64,000 nucleotides of DNA from Rubrivivax sp. (GCA_047602205.1 JASGHX010000001.1:3714601-3778600); one strand, 5' to 3'; shown: positions 52,394 to 57,909, numbered from the stretch's first letter. Numbers and translations are program-made. The notes: generated by a model not told the origin, from the letters alone.

Positions 52394-54006
52394 ACGCCGC
52401 CGCTGCCTATCCGCGTTGCGACCGCACCAAGGCCTGGGGCGCGCTGCAAGGCCACTTCGAGGCGCACGGCCGCGAGCTGGACCTGCGCGAGGCCTTCGCG
52501 CGCGACCCGCATCGCTTTGCCGCCTTCAGCCTGCAGGCGCCCGAGGTGTTTGCCGATCTGTCGAAGAACCTGATCGACATCGCGACGCGGCGCTTTTTGC
52601 TGGACCTGGCGCGCGAATGCGGCATCGAGCCACGGCGCGACGCGATGTTCGCCGGCGAGGCGATCAACGCGACCGAAGGCCGCGCGGTGCTGCACACCGC
52701 CTTGCGCGCGCCGCGCGGCGCCGCGCCGTTCAGCGACGAGGTGCACGCGGTGCTGGACGCGATGCTGGCCTATGCCGAGCGCGTGCGCGCCGATGCGGCC
52801 ATGGGCGGCTTCACCGACGTCGTCAACATCGGCATCGGCGGCAGCGACCTCGGGCCGGCGATGGCGGTGCCGGCGCTGGACGCCTACTGCCAGCGCGGGC
52901 TGCGCCTGCACTTCGTCAGCAACGTCGACGGCCACGACATCGTGCCGGTGCTGCGCGAGCTGGACCCGCGCAAGACGCTGTTCATCGTCGCCAGCAAGAC
53001 CTTCACGACCCAGGAGACGATGGCCAACGCCGCGGTGGCGCGGCAGTGGTTCCTGCAGCAGGGCATGGCCGAAGCCGAGATCGGCCGCCACTTCTGCGCG
53101 ACGACCACCAACGTGCAGGCCGCAGCCGCGTTCGGCATCGCGCAGACCTTCGGCTTCTGGGACTGGGTGGGCGGGCGCTATTCGCTGTGGAGTGCGATCG
53201 GGCTGCCGATCGCGATCGCCGTCGGCGACGCGAATTTCCGCGCGCTGCTGGCCGGCGCGCATGCGATGGACCGGCACTTCGCCGAGGCGCCGGCCGAGGC
53301 CAACCTGCCGCTGCAGCTCGGGCTGCTGGACGTCTGGTACCGCAACTTCCACCGCTTCGCGTCGCGCAGCGTCGCGCCGTACCACCAGGGCCTGCGCCGG
53401 CTGCCGGCCTACCTGCAGCAGCTGGAGATGGAAAGCAACGGCAAGCGCGTCGACATGGCCGGCGAGCCGCTGCCGCTGGCCACCAGCCCGGTGGTCTGGG
53501 GCGAGCCCGGCACCAACGGCCAGCACGCCTACTTCCAGATGCTGCACCAGGGCACGGACGTGATCCCGGTCGAGTTCATCGCGGTGCGCCGGCCTGCGCA
53601 CGGCCATGCGGATCTGCACGCCAAGCTGCTGGCCAACTGCCTGGCGCAAAGCCAGGCGCTGATGCGGGGCAAGACGGCCGACGAGGCTGCCGCCGAAAAT
53701 GCGCCCACCGCGTCGGCCACGATTGATCCCGCGGTGCTGGCGCGCCACCGCAGCTTCCCCGGCAACCGGCCCAGCACCACCTTCGTGCTGGACGAACTGA
53801 CGCCGCGCTCGCTGGGCGCGCTGCTGGCGCTGTACGAACACCGCGTGTTCACGAGCGGCGCGCTGTGGGGCATCAACAGCTTCGACCAGTGGGGCGTGGA
53901 ACTGGGAAAGGCGTTGTGCAATCAGCTCCTGCCGCGTTTCGACAGCGGGGACGTGAGCGGGCTCGACGCCTCCACCGCCGGACTGCTGCAGCGGCTGCGC
54001 GGATGA
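52390..54006 (+). CDS. pgi: Glucose-6-phosphate isomerase
   Basis: [64 protein letters not shown]. Confidence 0.98.
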
Positions 54007-54290
54007 GCGTGGCTCACCCGTCCCGCGCTGTGGTGTTCTCGACTTCGGCGCTGTGTTGTTCCGCTGGCAGCCGGCCGAACTGCTGCAGCCGGCGATGCCC
54101 GAACTGGCGCCCGACGAAGCCGCTGCCCGGCAGCTGGCGGCGCGGCTGTTCCAGGGCTTCGTTCGAGCTGGCGGCGCATCGCTTCGGGCTGGAGCCGGCG
54201 CACACGCTGTTCATCGACGACGACGCCGCCAACGTCGCCGCGGCCCGGGCCCTGGGCTGGCAGGCGCTGCGGTTCAACGATGCCGCGGCG
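54003..54290 (+). pseudogene. HAD-family phosphatase remnant (frameshift, internal deletion, 3' truncation)
   Basis: VVF / DFGAVLFRWQP (motif I, frameshifted)...LFQGF joined directly to FELAAHRFGLEPAHTLFIDDDAANVAAARALGWQALRF (motif IV); the cap region and motifs II-III are missing. Confidence 0.75.
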
Positions 54291-54780
54291 TGCGGCTCGA
54301 ACGCTTGGTGCGCTACGTGGCGCGGCCGGCGCTTGCCAACGAACGGATCGAGTACGACGAAGGTGCCGGCTGCGTGACCATCGAACTCAAGTCCCCCTGG
54401 CGCGACGGCACCACGCACCTTGCGATGACGCCGCTGGAATTCATGCAGCGGCTGGCGGCGCTGGTGCCCAGGCCGCGGCTGCACCTCATCCGGTTCCACG
54501 GGGTTCTGGCGCCCAACGCCAAGCTGCGCCCGCTGGTGGTGCCCATGGGGCCGCCCGCGCCGCGCACGGCCATCGGCGCCGAAGACGACCCGTTCGAGGC
54601 GGCGCCCGAACCCAAACGCCGGAACTACATCCCTTGGGCCAAGCTGCTGGCCCGCGTCTTCAAGCTCGACCTGGAGCACTGCCCCCACTGCGGCGGCGGC
54701 CTGAGGATGGTCGCGGCGATCCTGGAGCGCGATGCCATCGAGCGCATCCTGGCTGTGTGTTCCAGCGAGCGGATGGTTCA
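54291..54780 (+). mobile_element. IS91/ISCR-family (Y2 rolling-circle) transposase C-terminal fragment
   Basis: LERLVRYVARPALANERI, LKSPWRDGTTHLAMTPLEFMQRLAALVPRPRLHLIRFHGVLAPN, WAKLLARVF, CPHCGG; N-terminal two-thirds absent. Confidence 0.85.
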
Positions 54781-56811
54781 AGGTCGAACGTGTGATTCCC
54801 CTGCTGCCTGGGCGTCCCGTATCGACATCATCGGGTCGCCGAAGTGCAAGTCCTTGAGTTCATCCGGCGGTTGAACGTGGTGGCTCAGCGGGTGGATCTG
54901 CAGTGCGTCACGGCCCTTTCGCGCATATGCGGTCTTCCACTCCCACTCCACCCACTCGGACCTGGCCGAATGCTCTGACCAAAAGAGGAGAAACAGGTCC
55001 CGATCCATGATCTCGCGTTCGAGTTGGGGCTTCCATTCCTCGCCGGGATGCAGCGACATGCAGTCGAGGAAGATGTCGAGACTCGCACTGATCCGAGCAC
55101 TCGCGACGCGATCCAGCACGCGCTGCCGGTCCTCGCTCGAGTAGGACGCAAACGCCGTTCGGGAGGCCTTGGCACGCGCCTCGACCGTCGAGGTGCCTTC
55201 AATTCCGGCCGCAACCGATATGTCGAGCCGCAGCCGCGCGACCGTGATTCCATCCATCGAGACTTCGAACTTGAGAACGGACGTCCGCGCCGGGGCCGTG
55301 GTCGGCACGGTCACGTCGAATTCGACGAGAACGAACCGGCCCGACCATGTGGCCGCCTGCGTCTGTGGTTCGACGCCGAAATCGCTCGCGCTCAACCGAA
55401 CGTCGAACCGAGCCCCGATCTTCCAGCAGCAGGGTTGCAGGGCCATGTGCGAGGTTGACCGCGGGCTGAGCTTGCGAAGGATCTCGGCGACCGTCTCTTC
55501 GAGTTCGGGAACGTACGCGACGAGTCGTGCCGTGAACTCGTCGCCAGGGCGAACCGCCTGCGGCGCCGAGGCGCCGAGAAGGACTTCCGAGGCTTGGGCC
55601 TGGGGTGCAGGCGCATGCGTGCCGGGGTGCTGCTCGACCGCCGGCACGGCAGGCATGCGAGGTGCGGGCGCCCCGCCGACGATGGACAGGTGCTCGATGC
55701 CCGCGGCCAGGTCCTGGGTCCTCGCGCGCTGACTCGTCAGCTTGACCTGCAGGCGAAAGTCATTCAGCGAGGAGGCATGGCGCAGCGCATCTTCGTAGCT
55801 GATGTGGTTGGCCTCGTACAGATCGAACAGCGCCTGGTCGAAGGTCTGCATGCCCAGTTGGCGGCTGCGCTTGACCATCTCGTTCATGTCGCCGAACTCG
55901 CCCTTGGCGATCAGCTCGGACACCACGGGCGAATTGAGCAGGATCTCGACGGCCGCGATGCGGCCCCTGCCGCTCTGCCTGGGTATCAACTGCTGGGAGA
56001 CCAGAGCCTTCAGGTTCAGCGAGAGTTCCATCCAGGCTTGCTGGCGCCGATCGGCACCGACGAAGCTGCCGATCCGGCTCAGCGCGTCGACCGCATCCTT
56101 GGCGTTCAGCGTCGCCATGCACAGGTGGCCGGCCTCGGCGAACGCTACCGCATGCCGCCAGGCGGCACCGTCGCGGATCTCCCCCATCACGACGACGTCG
56201 GGTTCCTGCCGCAGCGCACTCCGATAGGCCTCTTCCAGGCTGTCGGTATCGACCCCGACCTCGCGCTGCGTGACGATGCAGTTCTTGTGCAGATGATCGA
56301 ATTCAATCGGATCCTCGATGCTGAGGATGTGGCCGTGTGAGTTCTCGTTGCGCCAGTCGATCAACGCGGCGAGCGTCGTGCTCCTGCCCGACCCATCGGT
56401 GCCGGCGACGACCACCACGCCCCTCCTGCTGAGGGCGACTTCGCCGAGCACCGCTGGCAGCCCCAGGCCGCCGAGGGTGGGCAATGCCTGGGTGACGGCG
56501 CGAAATACCAGCGCGATGCTGCCCTGCTGAAGAAACGCGTTCGCGCGGAAGCGCCCTGTGCCCGGCGAGCTGACCGAGAAGTTGCAGACCTTGGTGCTTT
56601 GGAGTTCGGCGGCCTGCTTGTCGTTCAGCACCGCGCGCGCCAGGGCCGACATGTGCCCGCTGGTCAGCGACTGCGGGCTGGCTCGGATCACCTGGCCGTC
56701 GACCTTGATGGCCGGCGGGAAGCCGGCCATGAGGAACAGGACGGAGCCGTTGCGGGTACGCGCCAACAGAAGCAGGTCTTCGACGAACTTCAGGGCCTGA
56801 TCGCGTTCCAT
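54778..56811 (-). CDS. PilU-like ATPase (degenerate) fused to a beta-rich domain and a C-terminal TIR domain, 677 aa
   Basis: aa 1-378 are full-length PilU (MERDQ..., FPPAIKVDG, SIEDPIEF, QREVGVDT, GEIRD, GMQTFDQALFDLYE, DLAAGIEHLSIV). aa ~553-665 are TIR_2 (AFASYSSED, IFLD..SLHPGEEW, FLLFWSEHSARSEWVEWEW). One uninterrupted ORF. Confidence 0.88.
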   Translation of the reverse strand: MERDQALKFVEDLLLLARTRNGSVLFLMAGFPPAIKVDGQVIRASPQSLTSGHMSALARAVLNDKQAAELQSTKVCNFSVSSPGTGRFRANAFLQQGSIALVFRAVTQALPTLGGLGLPAVLGEVALSRRGVVVVAGTDGSGRSTTLAALIDWRNENSHGHILSIEDPIEFDHLHKNCIVTQREVGVDTDSLEEAYRSALRQEPDVVVMGEIRDGAAWRHAVAFAEAGHLCMATLNAKDAVDALSRIGSFVGADRRQQAWMELSLNLKALVSQQLIPRQSGRGRIAAVEILLNSPVVSELIAKGEFGDMNEMVKRSRQLGMQTFDQALFDLYEANHISYEDALRHASSLNDFRLQVKLTSQRARTQDLAAGIEHLSIVGGAPAPRMPAVPAVEQHPGTHAPAPQAQASEVLLGASAPQAVRPGDEFTARLVAYVPELEETVAEILRKLSPRSTSHMALQPCCWKIGARFDVRLSASDFGVEPQTQAATWSGRFVLVEFDVTVPTTAPARTSVLKFEVSMDGITVARLRLDISVAAGIEGTSTVEARAKASRTAFASYSSEDRQRVLDRVASARISASLDIFLDCMSLHPGEEWKPQLEREIMDRDLFLLFWSEHSARSEWVEWEWKTAYARKGRDALQIHPLSHHVQPPDELKDLHFGDPMMSIRDAQAAGESHVRP

Positions 56812-57100
56812 GCGGAGAAGCTCCAGCTCGAGGCGTTGCGTACCATTCACCGCGGCGGTTCCACCCCGGGACTGATGTGCCGCCGAGCGGCATTGTCGCT
56901 GGCCCGCCGAGACTGCGAACGAGCCGCCCGAAGCTCACGAGCTTGCCGCAAGCCGCATGCGCGCGCGGCGTATGCATTCAGCGGATCGCTGAAGGGGTTC
57001 GGGGAGGCACCATGCGGCTCATGCAGCGGCGGACGCTCGCGGCGGGCCATCAACGAACCCAGCCCCGAGCGACACGCCCGCCCACGGCGGCATCGCCCCG

Positions 57101-57177: not shown

Positions 57178-57909
57178 TTACACGCTCGGCTCGACGGCCC
57201 GGATCGGTCGCCTGCGACGCAGCTTCAGTACGGCCATGCCCAGACCGAGCAGCACGAAGGTGGATGGCTCCGGCACCGGCGCCAGGGTGAGGGCCAGGAA
57301 CGTCGGAGGCGCGATGCCGTTGCTGGTGTCCACCCGCAGGCCGGGCGACAGCGAGAGAGAAATGAACGAGGGGTCGATCCCGTCGAAGGCGGCCGCTTCG
57401 ATGGCCGTACCGCTCTCGTCGACCACCACCTGGTACACGTGGCCGGCAATCACGTCGTGGAGACCGTGAAGTCGGTGGAGATCGATGGCTGCACCGAAGC
57501 GCAATCGAACACCTGGCTGGTGCAGATGCTGTAGCCGGCTGTCTCCAGTGTGCCCGTGGTGAGGTCGCGCAGCTGCACGTACTCGCGCAGGTAGGCGAAC
57601 TGCGGGATGTAGGGCGACGAGGGTGGATCGGCCGAGACCGTGCCCTGGAAGTGCACCGTGGACGAAAAGGTGCCCGAGTTGGTGAATTGAATGTTGATGC
57701 CGAACCGAGCCAAGCGCCGCCGCGGCTGCTGGCGCTCGATGAGGGCGCGATGCTGGCCGCTTGACAGTCACGTTGGCGAGCCAGGCACACGGCATGACGA
57801 GCAGGGTGACCCGGTGACGGCGGGCCGCCCTGGTGGCGCTGGGTGCGGGCGCTCGCCAGGGCTTGGCGAGGGCGATCAGGCCGTGGGTTGAGGGGGCTGT
57901 CGGGCGCAC
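57178..57909 (-). pseudogene. PEP-CTERM surface protein, frameshifted (5' end unclear)
   Basis: C-terminal VPEPSTFVLLGLGMAVLKLRRRR sorting signal; the upstream Thr/Ser-rich body (57450..57713) is in another frame; no clear signal peptide in frame. Confidence 0.65.

Follow-up and report, generated by a model that had tools for sequence, protein, structure and literature searches.

A 64,000-nucleotide stretch of a Rubrivivax sp. genome (GCA_047602205.1, JASGHX010000001.1:3714601-3778600; hereafter the window, with positions counted from its first letter) encodes, on the minus strand, a fusion of a PilU-type pilus motor protein with a cassette composed of a beta-sandwich and a TIR domain. From sequence comparisons we hold, with moderate confidence, that the PilU-derived half is a pseudo-ATPase that would serve a probably NAD-cleaving TIR domain as a sensing or assembly module without enzymatic activity of its own, in a defence setting. 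The pseudo-ATPase had been proposed in a first-pass annotation of the window, and is strongly supported by motif losses in this protein and by repeated losses in homologous fusions.

The fusion gene begins with an ATG at 56811, and the resulting N-terminus (MERDQA...) matches that of PilU homologues, with the ATG as residue 1. An alternative in-frame GTG start at 56850 is possible but unlikely. The open frame from 54778 to 56850 (minus strand) is the sole long frame at the site with family support, and the gene is divided as follows.

54778-56811, minus strand: whole fusion gene, 677 codons plus a TGA stop codon (54778-54780)
56497-56811, minus strand: PilU-type N-terminal (PAS-like) domain, residues 1-105, with the GRFRANAF arginines kept and the SDLF Asp24 replaced by Val
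55678-56496, minus strand: PilU-type C-terminal ATPase-fold domain, residues 106-378, with the PilU-specific tail ...AAGIEHLSIVGG
55591-55677, minus strand: Pro/Ala-rich linker, residues 379-407
55207-55590, minus strand: beta-sandwich (immunoglobulin/macroglobulin-like, Ig/MG-like), first half of the conserved cassette, predicted by AlphaFold with a predicted local distance difference test score (pLDDT) of 91
54781-55179, minus strand: TIR_2 domain (PF13676), 53.1 bits against a cut-off of 28

All of the PilU-type domain is present. The fusion protein matched TIGR01420, the PilT/PilU family, with 367.7 bits against a cut-off of 319.1 over profile positions 3-341 of 343, and Pfam T2SSE and TIR_2 were also matched. 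The best solved-structure match of the ATPase-fold domain is PilU 9n32 (E = 4e-115). Membership in the PilU subfamily is indicated by clade placement, by the PilU-type tail and by the absence of the AIRNLIRE motif, whose place is occupied by VVSELIAKGE; the gene does not lie directly downstream of a pilT gene. The AlphaFold model of the cassette has low pLDDT at its start. No Pfam family matched the beta-sandwich, for which a fold search returned only complement MG domains and similar sandwiches, while the TIR half of the predicted model has the TIR fold, with fold matches that include MyD88, MAL and the SPARTA TIR. Our preferred description of the gene, favoured on balance though not secure, is a PilU-derived pseudo-ATPase joined at the natural C-terminus of PilU, via a flexible Pro/Ala linker, to a beta-sandwich and TIR cassette.

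The case for a pseudo-ATPase begins with four motifs of the active site.

56377-56403, minus strand: degenerate Walker A, GTDGSGRST, residues 137-145
56308-56319, minus strand: Asp box IEDP (within IEDPIE), kept
56170-56184, minus strand: Walker B GEIRD, kept, with the catalytic Glu211 retained; the conserved RET after Walker B is GAA here
56104-56127, minus strand: His box HLCMATLN (within GHLCMATLN), with H229 retained and the second His replaced by Asn236 (56104-56106)

Within Walker A the Lys is replaced by Arg143 (codon AGG at 56383-56385) and a PilU-invariant Thr by Asp139 (56395-56397), and the helix after the His box is strongly altered. GSDLF reads GSVLF (Val24 at 56740-56742) and SQRL reads SQQL (Gln274 at 55990-55992). 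The corresponding sequences in 107 stand-alone betaproteobacterial PilU proteins and in the PilU of this genome are GATGSGKST, ATLHAN, GSDLF and SQRL. Walker A reads G(A/P)TG(S/T)GKST throughout those 107 proteins and the four native PilT/PilU paralogues of the genome, all four of which retain the Walker A Lys and both His; a native pilT-pilU pair lies at G000:C1:2848511-2850775.

The first-pass annotation had listed the same residues and coordinates (R143, N236, V24, Q274 and the kept IEDP and GEIRD), all of which are correct on re-reading of the sequence, and the betaproteobacterial consensus it had used agrees with the 107 PilU proteins and with the host PilU. The alignment it proposed with the native PilT and PilU of the host returned canonical motifs in all four paralogues. 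Its counting of SQRL to SQQL among the altered ATPase residues did not stand, as this is ordinary variation: the position reads AQQL in gammaproteobacterial PilU and in the solved PilU 9n32, and SQTL in PilT.

All four motifs (Walker A Lys, Walker B Glu, Asp box and both His) are required for PilT/PilU function (PMC6762196). Of roughly 14 canonical catalytic residues, only two are replaced. We infer that the PilU-type domain no longer hydrolyses ATP, though ATP might still bind, since it retains the P-loop glycines and the Ser/Thr as well as the Asp box and Walker B. These elements, and with them the first His, the N-terminal arginines and the Walker B Glu, are also what would be expected if Arg143 and Asn236 were tolerated and the domain were still an ATPase, either a slow but working motor or a switch driven by ATP that gates or powers the TIR domain. 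We regard this as highly improbable: the Walker A Lys and both His are invariant in the 107 PilU proteins and four paralogues and are described as required for function (PMC6762196), an Asp now stands within the P-loop, and the nearest related fusions, described below, lack a nucleotide site yet are conserved.

The pseudo-ATPase is altered well beyond its catalytic residues. Its PilU half shares 60-66% identity with betaproteobacterial PilU proteins, which share 75-99% with one another, and 53 of the 206 PilU columns that are at least 97% conserved are changed (controls, 107 PilU proteins: median 1, maximum 6). The changes span the entire domain, and many of those at invariant positions fall in the N-terminal domain, with a mild excess near the nucleotide pocket (27/75, 36%, versus 26/131, 20%; Fisher p = 0.013) in segments, namely Walker A, Walker B and the His-box helix, that were picked post hoc. 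The fewest changes are in the last 120 residues (region 266-385, including the PilU-specific tail). The earlier claim that surface motifs are kept finds no support in this count. The first-pass annotation also held that several substitutions argue against a single base-call error; 53 were found, and because of that number sequencing error was rejected as their cause.

In the cassette, 2 of 42 columns conserved at 97% or more and 8 of 84 conserved at 90% or more deviate, which is inside the range of its family. Divergence is thus asymmetric, with the PilU half heavily changed and the cassette conserved as in its relatives. This asymmetry bears on a reading as a decaying acquisition, by which a recently transferred gene under relaxed constraint has no maintained function and its catalytic changes are erosion. 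Substitutions spread domain-wide instead of being focused on catalytic residues, a gene that is a singleton among 36 congeners, atypical codon usage, neighbours that are gene remnants and the chance persistence of long open frames at 70% G+C would all fit. However, the cassette half is conserved as in relatives, with all invariant residues but two kept; G+C content at third codon positions (GC3) of 0.83-0.88 in frame still marks the coding frame; and 677 codons are without a frameshift or stop. Moreover, a lineage with far more degenerate ATPase domains has been maintained under purifying selection (below), and we consider simple decay quite improbable.

Evidence from relatives was obtained by a search of 1.84 billion representative proteins, which returned three further full-length fusions, P0307, P0309 and P0319. 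A second PilU-derived TIR fusion is encoded in the same genome at G000:C1:1034805-1036910 (P0242, 701 aa) and belongs to a group that we call family B, comprising 57 relatives with 52-93% identity (P0242-P0298) in Rubrivivax/Aquabacterium-type genomes. These degenerate PilU/PilT-TIR fusions have the same architecture as the window protein and all have crippled active sites; they share 25-36% identity with it, carry a divergent cassette subtype, and in most of them three motifs are missing altogether (Walker A, Asp box, His box). All three are gone from P0309, P0319 and family B (Walker A reads, e.g., ASRSxxLRRD), while family B retains GELRD. P0307, which is PilT-derived unlike the PilU-derived window protein, retains Walker A, has a Walker B of GDMRD (Glu to Asp) and has both His of its His box replaced by Arg (RLMLASLRT). 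Across the set, the second His-box His is absent from all fusions, and the SDLF Asp and Walker A Lys are absent from all PilU-type fusions, the SDLF Asp being Ala in P0309, P0319 and family B and Val in the window protein. No fusion with intact motifs was found among the 1.84 billion representatives. The first-pass annotation had suggested asking whether homologous fusions lose the same residues repeatedly; canonical motifs are not kept in them, and the losses are more thorough than in the window protein.

Family B retains its degenerate domain under constraint. Its N-terminal domain is nearly invariant, and in the closest pair that domain has the lowest ratio of nonsynonymous to synonymous substitution rates (dN/dS), 0.19, followed by the ATPase-fold domain (0.28), the sandwich (0.34) and TIR (0.49). 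Values from distant family B pairs (0.4-0.9) were set aside as unreliable because extreme GC3 depresses dS, and only the close pair was used. The family B pseudo-ATPase is under purifying selection, with the N-terminal domain the most constrained.

Further searches looked for close relatives of the window fusion itself. A whole-length homologue search yielded only stand-alone PilU proteins and artefactual PilT-PilU read-throughs, a genome-contig search for related loci yielded pilT-pilU tandems only, and no other record encoding this exact fusion was found in a search of contigs. The other long PilT-like matches (P0300, P0303, P0304, P0316, P0340, P0379 and P0392) are tandem ATPases or TPR fusions, with no cassette fusion among them. 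P0316 (metagenome, 942 aa) is a tandem PilT-like protein without TIR whose first copy has both His-box His replaced (GCLVLSSMNT), and from its sequence may represent another route to a PilT pseudo-ATPase. In one congener (L122, G417:C139:3000-8000) a degenerate PilU-type fusion has its cassette in another frame than the ATPase-like part, the result either of a frameshift in a pseudogene or of faulty assembly.

A phylogenetic tree of the ATPase domains places the window protein, P0309, P0319 and family B inside betaproteobacterial PilU with 98% support in the Shimodaira-Hasegawa-like approximate likelihood ratio test (SH-aLRT), so that the PilU-type domain copies the host PilU, and places P0307 inside PilT with the same support (98% SH-aLRT). 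All PilU-type fusions share a junction, ...HL(A/S)IVGG, at the point where PilU naturally ends; in each, as in the window protein, the fusion follows the IVGG of the PilU tail. In the cassette tree, the window cassette lies among generic cassettes and P0307 groups with the genome's own membrane-anchored cassette protein; the PilU fusions do not group together, although a single PilU-fusion clade is not rejected by the approximately unbiased (AU) test (p = 0.44). Because of this test, the ATPase tree and the common junction, three independent fusions, as suggested by the cassette tree, were dropped as a reading. We claim, from these data, two origins, PilU and PilT having each been recruited independently, with the window protein placed by the ATPase tree as the least decayed member of the PilU-derived lineage.

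The other half of the protein belongs to a large family. Its C-terminal ~270 residues share 50-58% identity with at least 238 proteins that have quite different N-termini, and the relatives (e.g., P0123-P0241) are annotated only as 'TIR domain-containing protein', the family being uncharacterised. Members have the same layout of a variable N-terminal module, a low-complexity linker and the cassette, of which the window protein keeps all invariant residues but two. While the N-terminal partner of the window protein is a PilU pseudo-ATPase, partners elsewhere are patatin, kinase, caspase/CHAT, leucine-rich repeat (LRR), TPR, NB-ARC, helix-turn-helix (HTH), membrane anchor, MotA/ExbB, the TssA N-domain and a TssK fragment. 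Domain calls confirmed patatin, protein kinase, caspase, MotA/ExbB, the TssA N-domain (ImpA_N) and the TssK fragment; precomputed Pfam lists gave CHAT, clostripain, NB-ARC, TPR, HEAT, pentapeptide repeats, HTH and ribbon-helix-helix (RHH). Among the orphan envelope-machine fusions, neighbourhoods were read for the TssA- and TssK-cassette genes, and both lie outside type VI clusters and beside integrases. P0309 adjoins a type I restriction-modification specificity (HsdS) gene on a MobA/ParB element, and one patatin-cassette gene has TIR, caspase and CHAT genes clustered around it.

A candidate catalytic residue, Glu624 (54940-54942), lies in SEWVEWEW, and 62 cassette proteins have it without exception. 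Alignment with Cat1 and with a TIR-TPR protein matches it to the Glu of their W-x-x-x-E TIR motif, a Glu that is the catalytic residue in TIR NADases. On this alignment the cassette is probably NAD-cleaving.

Several other cassette loci were observed. One (L115; GCA_018819845.1, JAHJPI010000027.1, 2479-18067) encodes at least five TIR_2 proteins (one with patatin, one with TPR), a caspase gene, a 1797-aa DUF7379-CHAT protein and a TPR-S protein, and looks like a multi-component conflict locus around the cassette. A metagenomic protein (P0122, 840 aa) carries two tandem beta-sandwich-TIR cassettes behind an N-terminal region. In a congener (L123, G419:C67, frame from 1840) an LRR region, read from the repeat pattern, is joined to a cassette of the membrane-anchor subtype, a bacterial TIR-LRR layout. 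A third cassette protein of the Rubrivivax genome (G000:C1:2648048-2649265) has an N-terminal membrane helix, a Pro-rich linker and the beta-sandwich and TIR, and is 39% identical to the window cassette. Three more TIR_2 matches above cut-off in this genome are without the beta-sandwich (G000:C1:4388260-4388631, 1482390-1482722 and 3951344-3951583), one of them broken by a TGA.

How the two halves might work together can be outlined. The PilU-type domain would still form a PilU-like ring; PilU hexamers are held by contacts between N-terminal and C-terminal domains even without nucleotide (PMC13142100). The dead ring would then be a non-catalytic sensing or assembly module that steers the clustering of six tethered TIR domains. 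TIR enzymes are switched on by clustering, and clustering here would lead to NAD+ cleavage. The setting would be one of conflict or defence, such as abortive infection, and the trigger something that binds the PilU-like ring. In a bait or decoy version, the ring would be bound by a phage factor whose target is the retraction motor of the pilus; in a guard version, the signal would be a change in the real motor on which the ring docks.

The same ring could serve as a pure scaffold or adaptor without any pilus or phage link, the dead PilU giving six-fold oligomerisation or an ATP-bound lock, or the cassette being a homotypic adaptor that ties the protein into a network with other cassette and TIR proteins of the genome. 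This plain hexamer-scaffold reading explains the same data and is the main rival to a decoy. The nucleotide-independent contacts cited above suit it, as does the N-terminal domain, which makes those contacts and is the best conserved part of family B. The same cassette is also joined to apparently intact enzymes (patatin, kinase), an adaptor network would be expected to show the observed clustering of cassette genes with those for caspase and CHAT proteins, and three cassette proteins, plus several more TIR_2 proteins, are encoded in this genome at loci apart from one another. Nonetheless, a scaffold gives no account of the separate recruitment of PilT and PilU or of the recurring orphan TssA, TssK and MotA/ExbB partners, and simpler oligomerisation domains are plentiful; we consider it rather doubtful.

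Another alternative is that the dead PilU is a dominant-negative or docking subunit at the base of the type IVa pilus that modulates retraction, e.g., to block DNA uptake or the entry of phages that depend on pili, with TIR for signalling or interaction and not for killing. PilU works through direct contact with PilT, and its retraction function needs its own Walker A and Walker B boxes (PMC6762196). Dominant-negative inactive modules have been proposed for conflict systems (PMC7159879), the host has a complete native pilT-pilU pair, and the PilU tail and region 266-385 are the least changed. Against such a regulator, neither the window gene nor its relatives are in or near a pilus operon, the invariant TIR catalytic Glu points to enzymatic use, and changes affect 26% of the positions invariant in PilU, many of them N-terminal. 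We judge it unlikely.

The first-pass annotation had gone further and read the protein as an integrated decoy. That proposal is consistent with the orphan machine parts and the LRR and TPR sensors found among cassette partners, and is plausible but unproven. It is plausible because orphan machine parts and sensor repeats hold the same position in relatives, and because inactive host modules have been proposed as decoys (PMC7159879). Three observations count against a decoy: no phage factor is reported to act on PilT or PilU, the protein has no NLR-type NTPase core, and the patatin and kinase partners of the cassette look intact, as set out below. In its fullest form, the cassette would be a 'bait plus executioner' platform to which bacteria fuse orphan, often disabled, copies of cytoplasmic components from envelope machines open to phage use or attack (PilU/PilT, TssA, TssK, MotA/ExbB/TolQ), and the window protein a true decoy: a phage protein directed at the retraction motor would bind the dead PilU ring, six tethered TIR domains would cluster and NAD+ would be destroyed. 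The decoy would be at an early stage, with most of its nucleotide site left where its relatives have erased theirs. We put this forward tentatively, as a possibility only.

Several observations weigh against the preferred reading of a pseudo-ATPase sensor for a TIR effector in defence. As regards the ATPase, catalytic residues have been lost no faster than other conserved positions, and with divergence this global, relaxed constraint on a recently acquired gene could give the same picture. Lys to Arg is the mildest Walker A change and the other catalytic residues are present (12 of roughly 14), leaving room for residual ATP binding or slow hydrolysis. Against a decoy in particular, the patatin partner has GxSxG and DGG, and the kinase partner VAVK, HRD and DFG, on a reading of their sequences; both look catalytically intact, so that dead domains are not the only partners of the cassette. 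Among full-length fusions, identity to the window protein reaches only 34-36% at best, and no close relative was found.

As regards defence, a literature search found no phage factor acting on PilT or PilU; Tip and Aqs1, which the first-pass annotation had cited, and Zip, PfsE and PlzR target PilB, PilZ or PilC. No known defence family in PADLOC or NCBIfam matched above threshold, with weak ThsB/ThcB4-like matches only. Membership in Thoeris was rejected, since ThsB matches are below or near threshold (PF08937 at 18.9 bits against a cut-off of 21.2; PADLOC ThsB models at ~1e-7 only) and no ThsA-type partner gene is present among the neighbours. The cassette gave one weak match in plasmid records and none in phage records. 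Finally, family B occupies a fixed syntenic site in several species (EptA, PAP2, gene, hydantoinase), and a site between housekeeping-type genes is not typical of defence islands.

The window gene itself looks acquired. The gene order is tal, pgi, HAD remnant, IS91 remnant, fusion gene, PEP-CTERM, sulfatase and TctC genes, in which two remnants precede the fusion gene.

53865-54374, plus strand: HAD hydrolase remnant, which follows pgi in related genomes, with ~106 internal codons missing
54296-54518, plus strand: IS91-family (Y2_Tnp) transposase remnant, C-terminal part only, convergent with the 3' end of the fusion gene

Related genomes have pgi and HAD in common and nothing beyond within 12 kb, so that synteny breaks in 53865-54874. 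The fusion is absent from all 36 of the 36 congeners examined, and its GC3 is 0.83, versus 0.97-0.99 for native pilT and pilU. The PEP-CTERM sorting-signal gene immediately upstream (57178-57909, minus strand) has a GC3 of 0.72 versus ~0.95 for core genes, and because this is unusually low it may be part of the same acquired stretch. At the family B site, one species (L114, 6778-7859) carries a RES-Xre toxin-antitoxin pair directly upstream of the family B gene, an insertion that marks the site as a small hotspot for accessory genes.

If the preferred reading is true, a type IV pilus motor has on at least two occasions, once starting with PilU and once with PilT, become a sensing or assembly part, itself non-enzymatic, that serves a TIR effector, and the graded series from the nearly intact active site of the window gene to the erased one of family B is a natural record of an enzyme becoming a pseudoenzyme. 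It would offer a concrete, testable case of bacteria, like plants, building copies of pathogen targets into immune proteins, would suggest that phage factors, although none is documented so far, may act on the retraction motor, and would bring forward a TIR cassette family that is large, uncharacterised and very diverse in its fusion partners. In kind, such systems are already known, both TIR effectors that carry a fused sensor and conflict proteins that contain inactive modules of the host; new are the use of a pilus-motor pseudo-ATPase in this role and the series of graded decay, for which we found no earlier description. A literature search returned no paper on PilT/PilU-TIR fusions or on bacterial integrated decoys with TIR, and databases label these fusions 'PilU' or 'TIR domain-containing protein'.

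Compared with PilU itself (TIGR01420, 9n32 and the host PilU), the accessory ATPase that depends on PilT for type IVa pilus retraction, the window protein shares fold, length, C-terminal tail, clade and an above-cut-off score, but has the Walker A Lys, second His and SDLF Asp replaced, is not encoded beside pilT, and bears a 300-residue C-terminal extension ending in TIR. A second comparison is with conflict systems in which inactive host-derived modules, including the ATPases MinD/ParA and FtsK, are proposed as decoys or dominant-negative binders (Kaur, Burroughs, Iyer and Aravind 2020, PMC7159879). The idea of dead enzyme copies in immunity proteins is shared, while the effector here is a fused TIR. 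The modules of that study hang on MoxR-vWA ternary systems, and MoxR/vWA genes were found neither among the neighbours in a non-exhaustive scan of the window nor among the genes listed near relatives; PilT and PilU do not appear in it (0 occurrences).

The first-pass annotation had also drawn a parallel with plant NLR proteins, which holds for the logic and fails for the core. Unlike those proteins, the window protein has no NB-ARC or STAND NTPase core, and no paired helper gene is encoded nearby. What it would share with plant integrated decoys (e.g., RRS1-WRKY and RGA5-HMA) and with single-protein bacterial TIR defences (ThsB-like and TIR-NLR) is a copy of a pathogen target wired to a TIR-type death or signalling domain, and the activation of TIR by clustering.

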